Source: Octopus sinensis (lineage: Eukaryota). From it: DNA of 64,000 nucleotides. The stretch lies in the NCBI RefSeq assembly GCF_006345805.1, contig NC_042999.1, forward strand, positions 60,884,001-60,948,000, read 5' to 3'. Of the stretch, positions 7,790-62,340 are shown piece by piece. The notes beneath the pieces were generated by a model. That model searched no databases and was not told where the DNA came from. It saw nothing but the letters and a program-made list of their open reading frames with translations. Position numbers and translations under genes: made by a program. Each line of letters opens with the position of its first letter. Position 1 is the first letter of the stretch.

Positions 7790-8810
7790 TGATCAATAAT
7801 GTTACACGTTACCACATTTGTTTGCAAAAAGGTAACCCTCTGTTTTAAATTTTTCTGGGCTCATAAGATTATGCTCAAGGTGGCTTCGTCATTCATACAT
7901 GCCAGCCTTGCTACATTCACCCATCTTTTTTTGAAACATTCTCAAGACAAAATACTTGCCTCTCTACTCTCACTTTCCTTTTCAAGTGATACTTGAAGAA
8001 GTTGGTGAGAGATTGACCAGAGAGGAAATTGTTTGTCTCCAATCCTTGATACATTCTTTCGCCATAGCCACAAGAATGATGAAAATAGCTCTTCCTTCTC
8101 GTTTGAAAGAAGGAGGCGTGACAATATTGACGATAGACTTGGCTGATAAACCGACTCGTCCCACACGTGACAGCAGTCGTTCGACATAAGCCCACAGGTC
8201 GGAAATTGTTGAAAACTGCACGAGTGTGTGCAGAACGGTTTCGTCGCTCTGACCGCATCTCGGGTAGGTCGGCCCCGTGTTTCTCGAGCCGTGTCTGTAG
8301 AGCTTACCCCGAACGGGTAGCGCTTCTCGGTAGCACTGCCAGGCCAGGGATCTCTGGAAGTTGTCCATTGGCCCCTGCCCGAAAGTCGTCCTGAACGGGT
8401 GGGTCAAGTATTCCTCGTCGACATCCAGGTTCGCCCCGAGATCGTCGTCGTACCTCCCCTCCACTAATCCTCTATAGAATGCTTTGGTTGTGTTGAAGTC
8501 ACTCAAGGTCGACTCGGGACGGCATAGTTGCTTGAGAGCAACGCGACACTCGCGGTGCCATTCGCCCTTCCTCGGCCTCTTTTTGATCCACGAATGCAGG
8601 TCGGTCATGGAGACGAGTTGCGGGAAAGCGTGCCTCACAAACGGCGTTCACACCTGTTCACCGTCGTCTACGTAGAGCCTGAGATGTCGTAGTCTCAGCG
8701 CGTGTCTGCGCATCATCAACCACGGCATACCCAGTCGTATTTTTAATGGGTGTTGACAGCAAATGGATCGTCTGACCACAGTACTTATCGTAAAGGGTCT
8801 CCTTTCACCA
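7790..8810 (-). mobile_element. Tx1/L1-clade LINE, 3' part of ORF2 (degenerate)
   Basis: LGMPWLMMRRHALRLRHL and LAWQCYREALPVRGKL..PRCGQSDETVLH (C-terminal zinc-knuckle region of L1/Tx1 ORF2); frameshifted. Confidence 0.75.
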
Positions 8811-19233: not shown

Positions 19234-20858
19234 GTTGCGGCCAAAATGTTCAGAACGGCATTGTTTTCGTCAGAAAAGTAAGTATAAGTTTTTATCATAG
19301 TGATTTTCTATTCTATAATTTTCACAGACAATAAATACAATATTAATTGTTATTGTCTGAAATTTTTGTGTAATTTGAGAGGATAATACAAAAGTTATGG
19401 ATGATTTAGTGATTTACTGCAAAACCCATGGCGGCCAAAATGATCAGAACGGTTTAAAAAATAACAAAATAATCAAAAATGACAGAGAATACTGGAATTA
19501 TTTAATATTTAGTGTGAAACCCTTTAGCTTCAATCACACTCTGACATCTTCGACTGCATGAGGAAATTAAATTTTCAATTTCTTGCTGGGTGATCTTATT
19601 CCATTCTTCCTGAAGGGCATTCCATAATTGCTCAGTTGTTTTAGGATTTCTGGCTTTCGAACGTTCTCCTAGAATATTCCATACATTTTCAATAGGATTG
19701 AGATCTGGGCTTTGAGCAGGCCAATCCATAACAATAACCTTTTCAGCCTTGAGGAAGTTCATGACCACCTTAGCCTTGTGACATGGGGCATTGTCCTGCA
19801 GGAATATGGGTGGTCGCTTAGTTGAATTTCTCAGCACAGGCAAAACATGATCTTTTACAAGTTGTTTATAAACTTCTGCATTTACCTTTCCATGTAATCG
19901 CACCAAAGGGCCCACACCATCTCCAGATATCATCGCCCAAACGATGACACTTCCTCCACCGAATTTAACACTAGTCTTAAGGCATTTAGGCGACAATTTT
20001 TCACCTACTTTTCTACGAACGTACATTTTCCCATCTGAGCCAAATAACATAAACTTAGATTCATCACTGAAATGCACCGTTTGCTATTTTTCTTGAGACC
20101 ACAACACATGTTCGGTTGCAAAGGTAAGACGACACTTTTTATTCTTGGAGCTGATCAGTAACTTCACTGCAGATGCTCTTGCTTGTAGGTCATGTTCAAC
20201 TAAACGACGAGACACAGTTATTCGAGATAAAGTTTTCTTCAATACAATGCTCATTTTCCGAGAAACAGCAGCAGCAGTTTTAAATCTGTCCTTTTTAACC
20301 AACTTTACCATAGCACGATCTTCTCTCTTGGTCGTTTTTCTTGGCCTACGTGTAAACTTTCTTGCTTCACATGAACCACAATCATCCTAGACCTTAAGAA
20401 TACCGTGTACAACACTTTTTGACTTGTTAACAATTTTTGCAACAGATCCAATACTTAAATTATCCTTCCTTCGAAGCTTAATAATCTGCTGACGAATTGG
20501 TAACCGAGTAAGTGGCATTATATTAACAAAGTACACTGCAAATATTCTTACTAATGTTTAGTAAACGAACCGTCATGTAAACAAATTCAAAACATTAGAG
20601 TTCGCCGGTTAAATATACTAAAACACGGAGTAAAAGCAACCGTTCTGATCATTTTGGCCGCCATGGGTTTTGAAGTAAATCACTAAATCATCAATAACTT
20701 GTATTATGCCCTCAAATGACACCAAAATCTCAGGGAATAGCAAATGATATCGTCTGTATTGTCTGTGAAAATTATAGAATATAACACAACTTTGATAAAA
20801 AATTATATCTACTTTTCTGACGAAAACAATGCCGTTCTGAACATTTTGGCCGCCGTTG
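19232..20858 (-). mobile_element. Tc1-family DNA transposon with long IR/DR-type terminal inverted repeats
   Basis: TIRs of about 225 bp (19232-19455, 20637-20858), each with two direct repeats GGCCAAAATG(T/A)TCAGAACGG; TA flanks. Confidence 0.95.
19502..20518 (-). pseudogene. Tc1 DD34E transposase, one reading frame with two in-frame stops
   Basis: MPLTRLPIRQQII.. through FSDESKF, QDNAPCH and SPDLNPIENVW (34 residues between D and E). ORFs 20084-20311 and 19502-20077 are in frame with the ATG at 20518. Confidence 0.92.
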
Positions 20859-30019: not shown

Positions 30020-30670
30020 CTTTGACTGGATTTTAGGGATCGACCAATGATTCATCCTATGTGATAACTCTGCTGAAAAAGTCCTCCTCGTTTCTTTGGC
30101 ACATTGCCAAAAGAGCTTGCGAGTACTTGACTCGCTCCTGCATCTGAAAATGTGCGAACATCCGGGGAATCCATCTTGCAGTCAACTTCCGCATATGCAA
30201 ATGGTCGTATATGATTTTTTTTTCCACGGACCCTACACTTATCTTCACTGGTTGTCGAATAGTTATGCAGCGATCCTCTAGAATGGCGGTTCCCACTTTA
30301 TGAATGGTGTTGTCATCAATGGCAGAATGTGGTTGTCCAGGAATAGGAGCAGTTTCCAGCGATGTCCGACTACAATTGAACTGGTGATGCCAGTGCTTGA
30401 CTACGTTGTATGATGGTGTATCGCCACCATAAACTTCTTTCATCTCATCGAATGTCATTCTTGGTGTAGACCTTTCAAGTATAAGAACCTGATCCCTGAT
30501 CGGCATCCAACTGCCTCCGTTATCACTCCTTAGTCCACGACAGCAGCCGTAAAAGCTAAACGAATACTAGTGGAAAACACCAATTTGCAATATGACATGT
30601 AGAGACATGTATAATTACACTTTCCGTTTCCTGTGATGACCGGAAGTGGATCAAGGGAAAGCCTCTCATG
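30020..30670 (-). mobile_element. mariner 5' half (degenerate transposase)
   Basis: EMKEVYG..VKHWHHQF..LHMRKLTARWIPR..FFSRVIT*DES (WVPR and first catalytic D motifs). Confidence 0.85.
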
Positions 30671-33530: not shown

Positions 33531-35065
33531 TGTTGTTGATTTTCCTCATAACTGTATTACTGGAACATGTTTTTGCATATGTTGGCTACTTCGTAATTTG
33601 AAATCGTATTGGTTTTCTAACATTCTTTACAAGATATATTTTTTATAGTACAACTGATATTTCGTAATACATATCTAGCTTTCTAATACGCTAACTTCTT
33701 CCCTGTATTTGTGGTAAATATAAATTTTTTGTGTGAGATTTTGCATGTTGTATTTTCTCAAACTTTCATTATTTTCCTGTCTATTGCTGCTAAATTTTTT
33801 ACTGTCTAATTGAAAATAATATTGCTATAACTCATAAGTGTGTCGGTCAGATTACTATACTTTTTGAGGGCGCTCAGCTCTGTAATAAGCATAAAATATA
33901 TACGTCTCTAATATTCTTTCTTATTTTTCGTTTCAATATGTGTGCTGCATACAGTCTAGATCATTAATTTTAAAGTACACCCTTGTGAGTGTTTGTATAA
34001 TTGTCTTATCTCAATTTATGTACCTAGTAAATCCTTATAGTTTTAAGCAATACTTTTTACATATGATCTGCAGTAGACAACTTGAATACATCTATATAGC
34101 AAGGTGGTTATTTCCATTATCATAGCATTTTTGCTAGTCTACATTTCTGTAAACATATTGGATGAATTTCTCATCATAAAATACAAAAGGTTTGGATAGG
34201 TTTTAGAAAGACCTTTTCTTGTTCTGTGACTGTAAAATTGGTGTCATTTACTCATTACATTGTATGTAGCTATGTAGGTTATTCCTAACCACACCATTGT
34301 AGTTATAACTAATATGTCTGCGATCACATGTGGGAAGCTGCTAAAAGACTTTCGTATACAATCAAGGCTATTTCCCAGAGAATTCGTTCTCTTGCAGTTC
34401 TCGCTTATGTCTTCCCTAATCGATAACTGATCTGTACAGCCAGGTGATCTTTTTCAATATCCTATTTGCTTTTTCGAGAGTGGCTTTAATGTTTGTCTTT
34501 GTTTTGTTTTTTTTTGTTTTTTTTTTGTGTGTGGCTGTGTCTATATCTTCACTGTGAATTAGTTGCGCTTAAAAAATGCTAGGTTTTAGAATAAGTTATA
34601 AAACCACTATGTTGATTACTAATTCCTTTTCCTGATAACATCATGGCAACATAATTTCATAATCGAAATATATTCTCGGAGAAAATATAAAACAATTGTT
34701 GACGTTTATCATACTGACACCTCTTTAAAGTATGTCAAAACACTGGCTGTCACAAAGCCTCTTGTACTAAAGAATTGGGAGTCGTGTGAGTGTACATTTA
34801 TAATAAAGAATGAAATATTTTCCTGTGAAGAAACACAACAGCGATTAGCATAGTCACGTCGGAATCTGCCGAAATGTATTAAAATTAAGCATGCGATGAT
34901 CGTTGTAATTCTCGATGTTCACTTTGCAAATCACTATTATATAAGTATATGTACGTATATATATATAACGGGAAGCTTTATGAAAATAGACAAAAGACGA
35001 AGGCAGGTGGAAAACAAACAAACAATTGTATTAGTATGGCGCTCAGGAAATATAAATAAAACAAG

Positions 35066-35103
35066 TCTTTAACGTTTCGAGCCTACGCTCTTCAACAGAA
35101 AGA
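35066..35103 (-). ncRNA. Minimal hammerhead motif of the PLE 3' pLTR
   Basis: UCUUU-CUGUUGA-A-GAGC GUAG GCUC-GAA-ACGU-U-AAAGA; perfect 5-bp stem I, palindromic ACGU stem III, A6U core variant. Confidence 0.75.
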
Positions 35104-35272
35104 TACACAGAGAGAAAAAAAACACAGAAAGAAGGAGAGAAAAAAAATGCGTGCAGTAACTAACGAATCAACATGGCGATCTGATTTCGGCCAGAGGTCA
35201 AAGATCAAACATGAGACGCGAGAGCGAAATAAGGGGAGATAATAGGGTTGATAATAGGGTTGAATGACCAGC

Positions 35273-35615
35273 TATTAGTGCGTAGGAGGGGTCTGGACGT
35301 GTGTATGTATAGGGTTGGTGTATGTATTAGTATGTATTAGTATGTATAAGGGTGTGTGTGTGTGTGTGTATGAGAGAGTATTAGTGCGTAGGATAGGTCT
35401 GGACGTGCGTATGTATGGGGTTGGTGTATGTATTAGTATGTATTTTTATGTATTAGTACGTATTAGTATGTATAAGTGTGTGTGTGTGTGTATGAGAGAG
35501 TATAAGTGCGTATGAGGGGTCTGGACGTGTGTATGTATAGGGTTGGTGTATGTATTAGTATGTATTAGTATGTATTAGTACGTATTAGTATGTATTAGTT
35601 GGTGTATGTATTAGT
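35273..35615. repeat. Three about 110-120-bp tandem repeats in the PLE 3' region
   Basis: Unit AGTGCGTAGGA..GTCTGGACGTG.GTATGTAT.GGGTTGGTG(TATGTATTAG)n. Confidence 0.85.
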
Positions 35616-38600
35616 ATGGCACATCATATATGATGTGATGTGTAAAGTCGTGCGGTGTAGTGAGGAGAAGAGGAGGGGAGAAGAGAGGGGAAGGGGAGGG
35701 AAGAAGAGGGGGAGGAGAGGAGGGGGAGGGGGAGGGGGAGGAGGAGGGGAGGAATGAGGAAAGAGGGAGAGGGGGAGAGAGAAGGGGAGTGAGGGAGCAG
35801 AGGGAAGAGGGAAGGAGGGAGGGAGAAAGAGGGAAGAAGGGAAGGGGAGTAGGGGTGAAAGGGTGAAGGACTGAAGAAGTAGGGGTCGGGGGGGAAGGAT
35901 AGGTGAGGAGGGGGGAGAGGGGGTTAGATGAGGAGGGGGGAGAGTTGAGACCAAATGGCGTATAAGAGCGAAGAGAGAAGATTAATTCCTGTTCACGGCG
36001 CAAACGGGAATCCGGATGGCCTCTGTGTAAGGACAAACCGAACACAGATAGGTGTTGCAATGAGTGACCGGTGGAGCGGAAATGGCGTGAGACCGGTGTG
36101 TCGTTTGCAAGTTGGATGTCACGAAGGTGTTCCGCGAACCGGTCAGCCAAGCGGCGTCCCGTTTGTCCGATGTACAAGGAATTGCAGAGAGAGCAAGAGA
36201 TGCAATAGATAATATTGCTGGAGTTGCAGGTGAAGGAGTGGATGATGGGATAGGGTCGATGGTGGGTGCTAGTGAGGCGGGTGGTGTTGGAGAGGTAAGG
36301 GCAAGTGCGGCAAGGTGAGCGGGAGCAGGGGAACGAGCCGGGTTGGGAGGTAGGGTCAGGGAAGGAGCTATGGACCAAAAGGTCTCGAAGGTTGTGGGCT
36401 CGTTTGAAAGAGGGGAGGGGTCGGTTAGGGAAGAGGTGTGAAGTGGACGGGTCGGACTGGAGATGACGGAAAGCTCGAAGAATGGTGCGTTGGAGACGTA
36501 GGGTCGTGGGGTGGTAAGTGAGGGGAAAAGGGAGGCGGGAGACTACAGGGCGGGTTCGGGGAGAGAGAGCAGATACACGGTCCAAGGACCGTGCTCTGGC
36601 AAGGGCGGTGTGGATAGTAGTGAGGGGGTATCCACGTAGGGTGAAGCGGTGAGCCATACGTTGAGACTGAGTCTCAAAGTCATGGTCGTCACTACAGAGC
36701 CTACGTAGACGGAGGAATTGGGAATAGGGGATGGAAAGCTTGGTGTGTTCTGGGTGGGAGGAAGAGAAGTTGAGGTATGAGTGTGAGTCTGTGTGTTTGT
36801 AGTGAATGGAGGTGGTAAGAGTGGAGTGAAGAATGCTAACCGAAATGTCGAGGAAGGAGACAGAGGTGTTGGAGATAGTGGAAGTGAAGTGGAGGGCGGG
36901 ATGGAAAGATTGGACGAAAGAGAGGAAGGAATCTAGATGTTCACGGGAGAGTGAGGTGGCACCGATAATGTCGTCAATGTAACGACCATATAGTTCAGGA
37001 GTGGGACCAGTGAAATTAGAGAATATTTGGGCCTCAACATAGCCAACGAACAGGTTCGCATAGTTGGGGCCCATTCGCGTTCCCATGGCCACTCCCGAGA
37101 CCTGATGGTAGAACTCACCCGCGAACGAGAAGCAGTTCAGAGTAAGGACAAGTTCGGCCAGACGAATGAGTGGAGGTGTCAGGTACAGGGTTAGAGCGGA
37201 GGTCAAGAAAGTGTCGAAGGGCCTGCAGTCCTTCGTGGTGAGGGATAACAGTATAGAGGCTTTGGATGTCCATAGTAAAAAGGATTTTGGAGGAGCCGGG
37301 AGGAAATGAGAAAGAGTTGAAAAGCCGGAGAGCATGGTTGGTATCGTGGATGTGGGAGGGAAGAGATGCCACTAGGGGGGCAAGGATACGGTCGAGGTAT
37401 TTAGAGATGAGCTCCGTGGGGCAGTTACAGGCGGAGACGATGGGGCGGCCAGGGTTGTTCGGTTTGTGGATTTTGGGGAGGAAGTAAATGGTGGGGGTAC
37501 GTGGGGTTCGCACAATTAGGTTGGATGCGGTGCGGGGGAGACGGGAGGACGCGATGAGGTCGCGGACAGTAGAGGATACCGTCTGTTGGTAGCTACGTGT
37601 GGGGTTAGAGGGCAGAGGGGAATAGAAGGAGGTGTCATTGAGTTGGCGGAAAGCCTCGGCCCTATAGAGGTCCGCGCGCCACACCACTACAACTCCACCC
37701 TTGTCAGCCGGTTTGATGATAATGTCAGCGCGCCGTTGGAGGGAACGAAGAGCCAAGAGCTCAGCCGGGGAGATGTTGAGGCGGCGTTGGCGCCTGAAGA
37801 AGTTGAACCGCTCCAATGCACGCTGACAAGCGCCCGCGAAAAGATCCACTGCTAGGATCTTGCCAGGGGCAGGCGTCCACGGGGATGGTCGGCGGCCCAG
37901 GCCAGTGAAGCAGTCCTCTTCGTTGGGTGTGGGTGGCGTGTCGTGGTAATGCGCACCCAACCGGACACGGCGCACAAAGCTGTGGACATCAACTCGCGTC
38001 TGGAATTCCTTACAGGATGGAGTGAGGGGAATGAAACGCAGACCCCTACCAAGGACGGAGCGTTCAGCCGCAGAGAGGGGAAGATCGGGGGGAATGGTAA
38101 CAACAGACGGAAGTGGAGAAGGGGTGGCTGGAATAGAAGTAGGAGGGGTGGTAGGTCTCGTGGAGGTCTGAGGGGGTGGTTGGGGGGGCAGTAGGTTTAG
38201 GTGTAGGTGGATGGAGCCTATCGGGAGGGGAGAAGGGATTGTAGGGAGGGGCAGTGGGGTTAGGTGTGGGTGGATAGAGCCTATCGGGAGGGGAGAAGGG
38301 TGGTGGAGGAGTTGGGGTAGTGGCGTCGGGTAGGGTGGAATGGAAGAGTGATTGGAGTTTACGAAGTTTGGTATCAGAAAGAAATTGATGGAAGAGTTGA
38401 TTCAAATGGATAATGAAGCGTAGCGTGTTTGGAGCATAGAGAGGCGGCAGAGAGGAGAAGAAGGTGGAGAAAGCAGGAGGAAGAAGGCGGTTGATGGCAT
38501 GTAGTTTGGAGAGATTGGAGCGAATGGTGGCCCGCATAATGCGGTAAGATGTGGTGCGGAGTATGGGTAAGATGGAAGAATCCGAGTGGAGAGCAGGGTG

Positions 38601-38800
38601 GAAGTGGAGGCGGAAACCTTTAGGGATGAGTCGGTGATGTAGGCAGCGGCTTAGGAAAGAGACATGGCTAGAGAAGCGGGTTTTTTAAAAAAGAAGTAGA
38701 GAGAGATCAACGGACGGCTGAAGGCAATATACAGGAAAGAACGGAGATGATCCTTCAAACGGTGATGGAGGGTGAGGAGGTAGGACCTAGGATCCGGCAT
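35611..38800 (-). pseudogene. PLE polyprotein (reverse transcriptase, Cys-rich linker, GIY-YIG endonuclease), frameshifted
   Basis: PADKGG, LPKIHKPNNPGRPIVS, LFTMDIQSLYTVIP, GVAMGTRMGPNYANLF, RYIDD, CSRSPCRTC, IIYCISCSLCNSLYIGQTGR, PFGLN (near 35945). Split over ORFs 38651-38851, 38064-38537, 37115-37975 and 35611-37335. Confidence 0.93.
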
Positions 38801-39209
38801 GATGGGATAGCGAAAAAAAAACAAACGTTCGAAAAAACAAAAAAAAATCAAAAAACAAAAAATTATCGTATGAAAAAAAATAGAAAAAAAGGGGATAGCG
38901 AAAAAAGGGGAAAAAACAAACCTTCAAAAAAACAAAAAAATAATAATCGTATGAAAGAACTAGATAAGTAAGCGATAGGGGCAGAAAAGACGGGGCAAAT
39001 GGAAAAGGGAAAGAAAGAAGGGAAGCAGAGAGAGGGGGAGGCAAAAAAGGGGGGTGCAGGCAGAGGAAACAGAGTATGGACATCCAGAGAGGGAAGAAAG
39101 ACGGAAAGGAGAACAAAAATGCAGGAAAATATGGAAAGCATGAAATGAATGTAAAAAAAGTGGTAATATATGAGAAAATAAAAATACAACAATAATTATA
39201 TATATATAT

Positions 39210-39367
39210 CCCTTCCTTTTCCTATGTTTCTGACGAAGCACTCCGCTCGAAACGTTAAATCCTCCTACTTTCTTTCCTTTCCTGAGCGTCCAATAACACT
39301 CTATACTTGTTCCACGTCCTCGCGTTGTTGTGTTTTCTCTTTGTGTTTTCATGTTTGAATCAACTTT
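39210..39367 (+). mobile_element. Diverged pLTR-like segment with hammerhead motif (39226-39260), inverted relative to the adjacent PLE
   Basis: GUUU-CUGACGA-A-GCACUCCGCUC-GAA-ACGU-U-AAAU; shares CGAAACGTTAAA..TTCCTGAGCG..TTCCAC with the 3' pLTR. Confidence 0.7.
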
Positions 39368-39381
39368 ATGTATGTACATAC

Positions 39382-39426
<45 letters not shown>

Positions 39427-51181: not shown

Positions 51182-51543
51182 ACTTCTCTTTCACAGTTCA
51201 AATTCACGAAAGTGTAGATGTTGATCCCTAAGTCCTAAGATACAATCCTGTGGAAAGTCACGTATGGTTGTAGCGTTACTACAGTAAATAACCAGAGACA
51301 ATTGCGAACGTATCGAAGTTTCGTAAGAGAATGATAATGGAGGTGGCTATTAAGGAATAAAGGGAATGAAAAACAAATACAAAGAGAAGAATGTAAAGAT
51401 AGGGAAGCAGGAAGTACAGAAAGTGCAGGCGGAAAGCAAGAATTGGTGTGAAGGATAAAATAAGGTATATAAAAATATAATGTACGAAAATAAACAAGAT
51501 GAAAATATAAACATGTCGTCTATATCATCGTTTCATTAATCTA

Positions 51544-52385
51544 TACCCTTCACATTTTTCCTATCTGTCTCCGATGACAGAATATCCCATGCTTTGGGAT
51601 AACCCAGAAACAGTTGTAACTTTTTCCTATAGTAATTACGTACATGACAACAAATATTTGTCTTGCCTTAGCGTTTGTTGTTGTATTTAACAATAATATG
51701 TATATGTATATATATACATATACGACGGGCTTCTTTCAGTTTCCCTCCATCTAATCTGCTCAGAAGGCATTATAATAGAAGACACTTGCCCAAGGTGCCT
51801 TGCAATGTGACTGGACGGGGAACCATGTGGTTGGTTACAAGCTACTTACCACACAGTCACACCTGCACCCATATATATATATATATATAAATATATATTA
51901 ATAAATGAAATAAAACATATGCATATATATAAACATATATGTACGTACCTACCTCTACATGTACATATACACGCATATATGAGTACAGGACACTAAAAGG
52001 ACGTCGAACACAAAGAGAAAGGAAAACATAGACACAAACCAAAGGAACAGGACATTTTTTTAAAAACAACAAAAAATGGAGTACAGGACAATTGACACAA
52101 CGAAAAAACCCCTTCTTCAGTCGCTAAGGTTTCATCTACTCTACGTTTCGAAGGATAAAAGCGAGACGTATCTTCGACAAGAAACTTTCCTTCCTGCGAA
52201 AAGCAAATCAATTAAAATTCTGAGATCTTTTCGCAGAGGGGTAAAAAATGGTAAAAAAATGGTAAAAAAACAGGACACTAACGACAGTACAAAAATATAA
52301 ACAGTAAGAAAACAGTAAAAAAATATATATAACAGTAAAAGACAGGACAGGGAAAACAAGATAAGAAGGGCTGTATATATATATG

Positions 52386-52489: not shown

Positions 52490-52543
<54 letters not shown>

Positions 52544-52870
52544 GTGCAGGTGTGCCTGTGTGGTAAGTAGCTTGTAACCAACCACATGATTCCCCGTTCA
52601 GTCACACTGCAAGGCACCTTGGGCAAGTGTCTTCTATTATAAAGCCTTCTGAGCAGATTAGGTGGAGGGAACTGAAAGAAGCCCGTCGTATATGTATATA
52701 TATATATATATACATATACATATTGTTGCTAAAGAGAAAACAAACGCTAAGGCAAGACAAATATTTGTTGTCATGTACGTAATTACTATAGGAAAAAGTT
52801 ACAACTGTTTCTGGGTTATCCCAAAGCATGGGATATTCTGTCATCGGAGACAGATAGGGAAAATGTGAAG

Positions 52871-52874
<4 letters not shown>
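51544..52874. repeat. About 330-bp inverted duplication (degenerate hammerhead pLTR plus half SINE B) flanking a central insert
   Basis: 51544-51871 and 52541-52874 are reverse complements with scattered mismatches; CCGATGA..ATCCCA TGCTT TGGGAT..GAAACAGTTGTA at 51571-51618. Confidence 0.9.
52108..52242 (-). ncRNA. Candidate rearranged hammerhead ribozyme, second sequence family
   Basis: ACCCCU-CUGCGAAAAG..CUUUUCGCAG-GAAGGA-AAGUUUC-UUGUCGAAGA-UACGU-C-UCGCU-UUUA-UCCUUC-GAA-ACGUA-GAGUAGAU-GAAACCU-U-AGCGA-CUGAAGA-AGGGGU. Confidence 0.8.
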
Positions 52875-52925
<51 letters not shown>

Positions 52926-61345: not shown

Positions 61346-62160
61346 GTAAAGCAAAGAGCGCGATTCGATTGTAAGTTATTTTATTAGTTGAACGATATTT
61401 CAACAGTACGTCTGTCTTTGTCAAGTGGAAAATAAGAAGTGATAAAAATTCAAACTTATAGAAATTTAAACGTAAAGTATGAACGAGAGCAACCAGCGTC
61501 CACACGTTGATAGAATGATATCACCAATTTTTAAGTTACAATTGTATAAAAGGCGAAAAGAAAAAGACAGAAAAAACAGAAAACAGATGACGACAGAAAA
61601 AAGGAAAGGAAAAGAGAGAAAGAAGAATATTTGATCAAACAGTTTTGTATAAATTTGATGATATTCTCCTGCCATCTTATTCCTTCCTCCAGGGCGTAAT
61701 GTTAATATCCCACAAACATATTTCTCCTCATAGATTCTGAGGAGTGAAAATTAAGCAGATTCAGAATATTTTCTGAGAATATGTACTTTCAAGTCTTCTT
61801 CAAAATTGCAGCCGCTTGAAATGAAATATTCAGCAAGTTCTGTCGAACTACTGTTATTGTGCCTGACGTCGAATCTGTACCCATTAAACCTTTTGTTTAA
61901 TTGTTCTGTTGTACAACCAACATAAATTAAATTGTGTTTCATGCATTCTGCAGCGTACACCAAATGGGAATCTTTGCATGTTCCACCTTCTGTATAAATC
62001 ATAACATTTCTGTTATGATTTCTGAAGGAATTCACTTCACTCATGTTGTTGCACAATGAACAGGGCTTGCCTCTCTTACAGTTGTTCTTTAAGAACTTGC
62101 TGAAAATTTCGCTTTTGTTTTTATGTTTTCGTTTCTCATTGTGTTCAGTTTTTTTTACGT
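61345..62160 (-). mobile_element. 5'-truncated Penelope-like element (GIY-YIG end plus 3' pLTR with variant hammerhead-like motif at 61391-61427)
   Basis: CKRGKPCSLC..CKDSHLVYAAECMKHNLIYVGCTTEQLNKRFNG; CUUGACAAAG-ACAG ACGUA CUGU-UGAAAUAUCGU. Confidence 0.8.
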
Positions 62161-62180
62161 CCTGTACTCATATATGCATG

Positions 62181-62224
<44 letters not shown>

Positions 62225-62340
62225 GTAGGTCTTGTACATATATGTATGAATATATGCATATATTTATATATTATTTATATTATTATATGATCAAACGCCA
62301 CGCATTCTTTTCCAAGTAAGTGTATATATATATATAATAT

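Follow-up and report, generated by a model that had tools for sequence, protein, structure and literature searches.

How can a hammerhead ribozyme work when its chain is broken inside the catalytic core? The question is raised by a 135-nt segment on the minus strand (52108..52242) of a stretch of Octopus sinensis DNA (NCBI RefSeq assembly GCF_006345805.1, contig NC_042999.1, positions 60,884,001 to 60,948,000 of the forward strand; 64,000 nucleotides, hereafter the window). An earlier note, made without database searches, had proposed that the segment is a rearranged self-cleaving hammerhead. The analysis reported here points to a functional hammerhead ribozyme of an undescribed topology, which Penelope-like retroelements (PLEs) of the Naiad clade and their non-coding derivatives would use to cut their RNA; we put the probability of this reading at roughly 0.86. 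In this split-core form the two ends of the break would be held together by two added helices, P0 and P1.

The hammerhead core is complete at the locus (C3 U4 G5 A6 N7 G8 A9, G12 A13 A14, the A15.1-U16.1 pair and H17), as seen from a direct check of the strands and a descriptor match. All positions below are on the minus strand and run from 5' to 3'. The segment opens with the 5' strand of P0 (ACCCCU, 52242-52237), the closing helix of a four-way junction, followed by the 10-bp P1 hairpin (52194..52236; 52236-52227 paired with 52203-52194), which is placed end to end on P0. Then come the 5' strand of stem II (GAAGGA, 52193-52188, with G10.1 at 52193), which lies upstream of the cleavage block, and the 5' strand of a bracing helix, X (52181..52185). 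The cleavage block, S (52160..52170), consists of the 5' strand of stem III (52170-52166), the GUC triplet and the 5' strand of stem I (52164-52160); C17 is at 52165, and the predicted cut lies 3' of it, between 52165 and 52164. After a 4-nt linker, block G (52142..52155) contains the 3' strand of stem II (UCCUUC, 52155-52150), G12-A13-A14 (GAA, 52149-52147) and the 3' strand of stem III (52146-52142). The 3' strand of X (52129..52133) is followed by a truncated block C (52114..52125), made of the 3' strand of stem I (52125-52121) and CUGAAGA (52120-52114; C3 at 52120, G5 at 52118, G8 at 52115, A9 at 52114), and the segment closes with the 3' strand of P0 (AGGGGU, 52113-52108) immediately 3' of A9. 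There are no unpaired bases where P0 meets P1, where P1 runs into G10.1, or where A9 runs into P0. All the strands named in the earlier note are at the places it gave, but its fully paired bracing helix AAGUUUC/GAAACCU is in fact five contiguous pairs (GUUUC/GAAAC) followed by an A-C mismatch. In such an arrangement stems I to III, together with helix X, would build a normal core with the backbone open between A9 and G10.1. P0 and P1 would stack as one arm of the four-way junction, stem II and the A9-G12 pair would form the other arm, and the active site would stay intact. Given an intact core, ordinary G12/G8 hammerhead cleavage would be expected after the GUC at 52165, yielding a cyclic phosphate and a 5'-OH.

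Hammerheads of types I, II and III are circular permutations of a pseudoknot-free three-way junction, and the strand order at this locus is none of them, as the earlier note had recognised. Eckert et al. (2023; PMC10085705; the papers cited here are represented by those parts that were available) have divided the core into the blocks S, G and C, assumed to be uninterruptible, from which six orders follow. The window form has the block order S-G-C, with the short stem I-II linker of type SGC and, in helix X, the counterpart of its stem I-II 'I' helix. Block C is not intact, however, since the 5' strand of stem II does not directly follow CUGAnGA and the A9-G10.1 link is open. Compared with the published rearranged hammerheads, as the earlier note had advised, the form is none of the six permutations. 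The "scrambled order" of that note is therefore partly new, in the A9-G10.1 break and the four-way junction, and partly not, as the block order itself has the published S-G-C handedness, linker and 'I' helix. The type-SGC (HRIMA-1) and type-CSG hammerheads share with the window form the core bases, the cyclic strand order, a short linker between stems I and II (typically 3 nt in them, 4 nt in the window form) and a helix by which the distal ends of these two stems are braced (PMC10085705). They differ in that they are not opened inside the core at A9-G10.1 and clamped by P0 and P1 into a four-way junction. The window form also occurs at high copy in animal genomic DNA, whereas the SGC and CSG RNAs of that paper turned up in no genome of a known organism. 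We file the split-core form, on its sequence features, within the hammerhead class and not as type SGC.

Two other known hammerheads come near to it in single features. The (+) hammerhead of chrysanthemum chlorotic mottle viroid (CChMVd) tolerates a natural extra A between A9 and G10.1 (PMC3705267), which is one base and not a break with two helices. The pseudoknot (PK) hammerhead has an added helix, but in the part available its A9-G12 and G10.1-C11.1 are described as forming a single short stem and no break is mentioned (PMC11300833). The full-text literature searched, which left supplements, subscription journals and the notes of Dfam and Repbase outside its scope, contained no hammerhead broken at A9-G10.1 and no rearranged hammerhead in Naiads or cephalopods. 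Weinberg and co-workers are said to have described hammerhead variants with added helices in 2015. In the part available, a November 2026 paper (PMC13725137) gives Weinberg 2015, Eckert 2023 and Forgia 2023 as its only sources on extra-helix or otherwise permuted variants. No form like the split core was found in the accessible parts of Forgia 2023, Perreault 2011 or the PK hammerhead paper, nor anything on such a form in those of PMC8370743, PMC6765202 and PMC5737381.

A strict descriptor of the split-core topology matched the window once, with the cut after C52165, and gave no match in 300 dinucleotide shuffles of the window. When the S-G-C core was held fixed and the flanks were shuffled, 137 of 5000 sequences passed the minimum and none attained the real score of 37. 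Rfam gave no match in 51980-52372 at E<=10; over the whole window, among the 150 of 238 matches listed, there were only microsatellite-driven microRNA matches. Nested folding does not single out the region (z = -1.0), as is expected of a pseudoknotted RNA, and of all the helices it yields no more than P0, P1 and a portion of stem I. An inactive register, GAAGGG/UCCUUC, which would absorb G8 and A9, can be drawn, but has a pair probability of 0.00 in competition with P0.

The strongest evidence comes from other copies in the source genome. The 161-nt region gave 2164 first-look candidates, and 17 of the 40 scored were identical, one being the window itself. Pattern searches for further families, from which the window family (family A) was excluded, returned 15, 16, 62, 594 and 463 matches against 7, 15, 40, 25 and 17 in the respective controls; the pattern with 16 against 15 gave no clear new family. 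The fetched loci contained 235 distinct core segments, of which 198 fell into 10 clusters of at least three and 37 remained unclustered and outside the comparison of families. The consensus folded into the split-core layout with the zero-slack junction in 8 of the 10 clusters, and nine families were obtained by splitting the largest cluster, so that A and B are separated. One further cluster (F3, n=4; L033, L035, L036, L039) fits the search pattern and not the structure, and was excluded as a different repeat. This repeat, a copy of which is also present in L001, bears GAAAC and CUGAAGA motifs outside any split-core structure.

The first four base pairs of stems I, II and III, P0 and P1 are each paired in all nine families. 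When strands were combined across families, only 8 (I), 12 (II), 16 (III), 13 (P0) and 10 (P1) of 72 combinations paired. Most paired positions show three or four distinct Watson-Crick pair types among the nine families, and both strands of P0 covary to the point of reversal, with CCCCU/AGGGG in the window and GGGG/CCCC in family C. Helix X, the contact between stems I and II, has 5-8 bp of differing letters in nine of nine families. Shuffled flanks attained the combined II, P0 and P1 score of each family in 0-2 of 1000 trials. The helices are real and are conserved by covariation. The earlier note had called for such a check; its rearranged hammerhead and its bridging of the A9-to-stem II link by P0 and P1 have both come through it, as the nine families keep the helices with changed letters and strands from different families mostly fail to pair. 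In a subgroup of family E (L184, L190, L194), A9 is followed by UU instead of A, which makes the junction imperfect; a degree of slack may thus be acceptable there.

A second line of evidence is the position of the 5' ends of genomic copies. Ends were counted at minus-strand loci, one row per locus, where a TA run lay within 30 nt of the anchor. TA-joined 5' ends were found at 105 of 551 loci between -18 and +13 of the predicted cut, at 14 of 337 between -42 and -12 and at 13 of 317 between +87 and +117, and the excess has a Fisher p of ~1e-11 and ~3e-11 against the two control intervals. The GUC was shown to be retained, at the spacing of the main subfamily, in only 7 of the 105. On a manual count of the 33 loci contained in the 100 rows listed, 29 begin on the 3' side of the predicted cut and 4 on its 5' side. 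With the TA requirement dropped, the first 80 copies listed divide into 18 that start at +2..+13, 8 that start at -1..-78, of which two are internal deletions, and 54 that extend further; starts just 3' of the predicted cut occur among these 80 at about tenfold the rate elsewhere (binomial p 3e-10). For a family-E-type anchor, a count by eye puts the start on the 3' side of the site in 23 of 23 loci, and in family C both of two starts lie 3' of it, one precisely at +1. The count is also high at +11..+41 (131, not normalised) and low at -107..-77 (19). A step in the 5' ends at the predicted site is thereby shown. Such a pile-up just 3' of the site is expected if the reverse transcription of cleaved RNA begins 267 nt downstream, and it supports the cut position given in the earlier note.

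The third line concerns the Naiad PLEs. Craig et al. (2021; PMC8557442) have described Naiads as targeting (TA)n, lacking canonical hammerheads and occurring as head-to-tail and inverted copies, and their supplement flags 10 'HHR_core' and 8 'HHR_half_core' Naiad cases. Twenty upstream stretches of 6-8 kb from families I and J and one other locus contained, among the matches listed, at least one decayed reverse transcriptase (RT) fragment (L217), to which Pfam gave no name. With a decayed RT fragment lying upstream of a family I copy, 30 loci were found; in three of them a family I ribozyme follows in sense orientation at a distance of 733-1082 nt downstream, and none of these Naiad-like RT remnants has it upstream or antisense. 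Family I thus has its ribozyme in the 3' untranslated region downstream of a Naiad-type RT at 3 of 30 remnants, the RT type being given by likeness and not by placement in a tree. By eye, the 3' ends of these family I loci also match the ends published for Naiad_Ovul and Naiad_Obim.

For each of 45 Naiad consensuses in the supplement of PMC8557442, the final 420-450 bases were surveyed by eye only and with no script, and the Naiad results that follow are to be read on that basis. The split-core strand order was present in 11 of the 45: with a clean junction in Naiad_Obim, Ovul, EuTe, Amil and Anas, with small deviations in Naiad Aacu, Naiad-3_Chem, Naiad-2_Movir and Bfor, in decayed form in Naiad Esco, and in Naiad Plae with P0 and P1 beyond the bases viewed. 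The core bases are intact in these published consensuses from ctenophore to crustacean. We take EuTe to be a clam shrimp, Amil, Aacu and Anas to be Acropora corals, and Movir to be a box jellyfish. The metadata of PMC8557442 give Bfor, Chem, Obim, Ovul and Esco as ctenophore, hydrozoan and cephalopods. Taken with the family I ribozymes near RT remnants, these consensuses bear out the Penelope-like context that the earlier note had suggested, and the split-core form appears, from the sequences compared, to be the ribozyme that Naiads were thought to lack.

Other Naiads have other motifs at the same place. The 3' ends of Naiad-1_Movir, Bpla, Mphi, Scon and Mmer show motifs that we take to be twister-like where other Naiads have a hammerhead. 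Six nematode Naiads (Naiad-1/2/3_Nbra, Hcon, Hpol, Asuum) show the CSG order and appear to have type-CSG hammerheads with long helices, Hcon being the one in which the pairing was examined closely; the CSG sequences of Eckert et al. (2023; PMC10085705) were only two, both metagenomic. A third conserved structured motif, approximately CGGGUG ... GCU(C/U)ACUC ... CACCUG, occupies the same position in Naiad_CGi, Sglo, Olur, Tgra, Pmar, Naiad-1_Skow and Naiad-1/2_Chem; it matches no ribozyme class recognised here and is a candidate self-cleaving RNA. The spider Naiads (Naiad_Smim, Naiad_Ptep) have the S-G-C core order with other helix arrangements, and are possibly further hammerhead variants.

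Several observations weigh against the proposed ribozyme and its use by PLEs. The pair probabilities of II, III and X in the nested-only ensemble are 0.03-0.07, so that the pseudoknot is not demonstrated by folding and rests on sequence and covariation. The covariation has its own limits: the search patterns already prescribed III.1-III.3 and C11.1, the descriptor itself selected the registers of II, P0 and P1, and the families are phylogenetically non-independent, with A, B and E having a common 3' tail. The consensus of one cluster (F7, n=3, outside the nine families) gave no descriptor match, and in the older families the strict descriptor rejects the majority of copies (passing: H 0/23, J 0/8, I 1/12). 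Within families, mutation at paired versus unpaired positions is, for example, 0.035 versus 0.012 in C and 0.24 versus 0.27 in H, with no protection of paired sites, which indicates that selection is visible between source lineages and not on inserted copies. The 5'-end peak is broad, at +2..+13 and probably to +41, and not precisely at +1. Finally, a tblastn search with a Neptune-like query from the window (which may miss a Naiad RT) gave no PLE protein match in cis within ~1.5 kb at 211 family A loci; its sole match was an unrelated opposite-strand copy in L004.

The explanation that best survives besides cleavage, though an unlikely one, is a conserved hammerhead-derived RNA that does not cleave or depends on a protein, and serves as a recognition or stop signal for the RT, the pile-up of 5' ends being due to stalling in the pseudoknot. 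The breadth of the peak, which lies inside the pseudoknot, would suit stalling, and insertions in the core can impair hammerheads (Perreault 2011). Yet the excess of ends stops at the predicted site, and across P1, the most stable helix, it is no higher than background (14 of 337). The intact core bases from ctenophore to crustacean also argue against a non-cleaving RNA, as do the other Naiads with twister-like or CSG-type motifs at the same place, since such variety suggests that cleavage is what is needed, and not one particular structure.

Less probable still is a plain type-SGC hammerhead, a type proven experimentally (Eckert 2023; PMC10085705), in which stem II would be formed from the bases after A9 (AGGGGU with AUCCUU, with an additional C ahead of G12), leaving P0, P1 and the upstream GAAGGA as incidental. 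A 6-bp helix with two G-U pairs can indeed be drawn in the window family. Its modelled energy, however, is -3.8 against -9.1 kcal/mol for P0, and its pair probability 0.00 against 0.85. Elsewhere the bases after A9 pair with the strand before GAAA, allowing 2 nt of slack, over at most 1 bp in families C, H, F and G, 2 in I and 4 in E and J, and in the exact register over 0-1 bp in all eight passing clusters, while with the upstream strand 4-6 bp are formed in every one of the nine families. The bracing helix directly follows this upstream strand, as is required if it is stem II. In family C the bases after A9 are unable to pair with those before GAAA, which excludes the plain type-SGC form there. 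Dimeric cleavage of minimal PLE hammerheads was reportedly seen by Lunse and co-workers in 2016, and the present element forms tandems, but an active form built in trans or across tandem units, with P0 and the stem II 5' strand taken from a neighbouring unit rather than from one 135-nt stretch, is the least credible of the three, as all partner strands lie within 135 nt of one unit, the junction has zero slack in 8 of 10 clusters, and the complete strand set is present in single-copy Naiad 3' ends.

The copy in the window is carried by a 5'-truncated unit of a 909-nt tandem non-coding retroelement (51899..52374, minus strand) with (TA)n on both sides, covering monomer positions 417-909 (the 3' 493 nt) at 93.5% identity to the L009 unit. 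The 3' end of the element is constant in 28 of 30 loci, where it falls in the TA repeat 267 nt on the 3' side of the predicted cut; the 5' ends are variable, and 6 of the 30 have seamless head-to-tail junctions. The 909-nt unit has no long open reading frame (ORF), the longest starting at Met being 108 aa. Metazoan non-LTR retrozymes are likewise non-coding tandem units with one hammerhead each, and have been proposed to move as circular RNA with the help of PLEs (PMC7229834, Cervera and de la Pena, 2020; preprint 10.64898/2026.07.22.740005, Li et al., 2026), but theirs are type I hammerheads in units of ~300 nt and not a split-core form in a unit of 909 nt. With the Naiad clade (PMC8557442) family A shares (TA)n targeting, head-to-tail and inverted copies and a motif near the 3' end; it differs in having no ORF, and hence no N-terminal GIY-YIG and C-terminal RT in cis, and no shown sequence link to a Naiad. 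Counts of inverted and tandem copies per cluster are dominated by microsatellite matches except in F1 and F10. Judged from these features, the anatomy of family A is that seen in PLEs as well as in non-LTR retrozymes.

If the RNA cleaves, tandem or read-through transcripts would be cut into 909-nt units whose ends could pair through ~22 bp (P0, II, X and III), favouring re-closure to a circle. A Penelope-like enzyme with RT and GIY-YIG domains, acting in trans, would prime at (TA)n from a constant start that lies 267 nt 3' of the cut. The RT would run off near the cut on cleaved linear RNA, which would account for the pile-up of short copies, and would read through the site on RNA that is circular or uncut, with long and tandem copies such as that of the window as the result. 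A young Neptune-like element, for example the one at 39400-34960 in the window, is an alternative driver of family A. This Neptune-like Penelope element (34960-39400, minus strand) has RT and C-terminal GIY-YIG in frameshifted pieces and ends in (TA)n. Within it lies a minimal type I hammerhead-like motif (35095-35074) with the variant UUGAAGA, and a second one (39230-39253, plus strand) is found in an inverted pseudo-long terminal repeat (pLTR)-like piece of another PLE family. Such minimal type I hammerheads of other PLEs have the same core, the same position near the element 3' end and TA targets, and differ from the split core in their canonical C-G-S order, short stem II hairpin and absence of pseudoknots.

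Elsewhere in the window, a 368-bp inverted duplication of host DNA (94% identical, including a repeat fragment) flanks the insertion at 51539-51898 and 52514-52879, and was possibly made during insertion. A diverged (77%) piece of the 3' tail of the family A element, without the ribozyme, is present at 62114-62226 on the plus strand. The open frames at 19502-20083, 30057-30566 and 7982-8647 are apparently transposase-like and non-LTR-like.

Overall, it is probable, though less so than ribozyme function itself, that the split core is a seventh natural hammerhead topology, the first with a break in the core chain repaired by a four-way junction. It would be active, distributed from ctenophores and corals to crustaceans and cephalopods, present in thousands of copies in this genome, and borne by Naiads whose 3' ribozymes are interchangeable (split-core, CSG and twister, perhaps also a class not yet recognised), with 5'-truncation profiles recording the cut sites in vivo. 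If true, a natural, covarying, high-copy break at A9-G10.1 overturns the 2023 scheme of six forms built on uninterruptible blocks, and the form is the first non-circularly permuted hammerhead tied to animal genomes within the literature searched. With Rfam blank at the locus and hundreds of exact-pattern matches, descriptor and covariance-model searches would be missing a large class of animal ribozymes. The A9-G10.1 junction would be a natural site for aptamer grafting. If the reading is true, the puzzle of Naiads proliferating without hammerheads would be removed, and the role of ribozymes in their retrotransposition would become testable.
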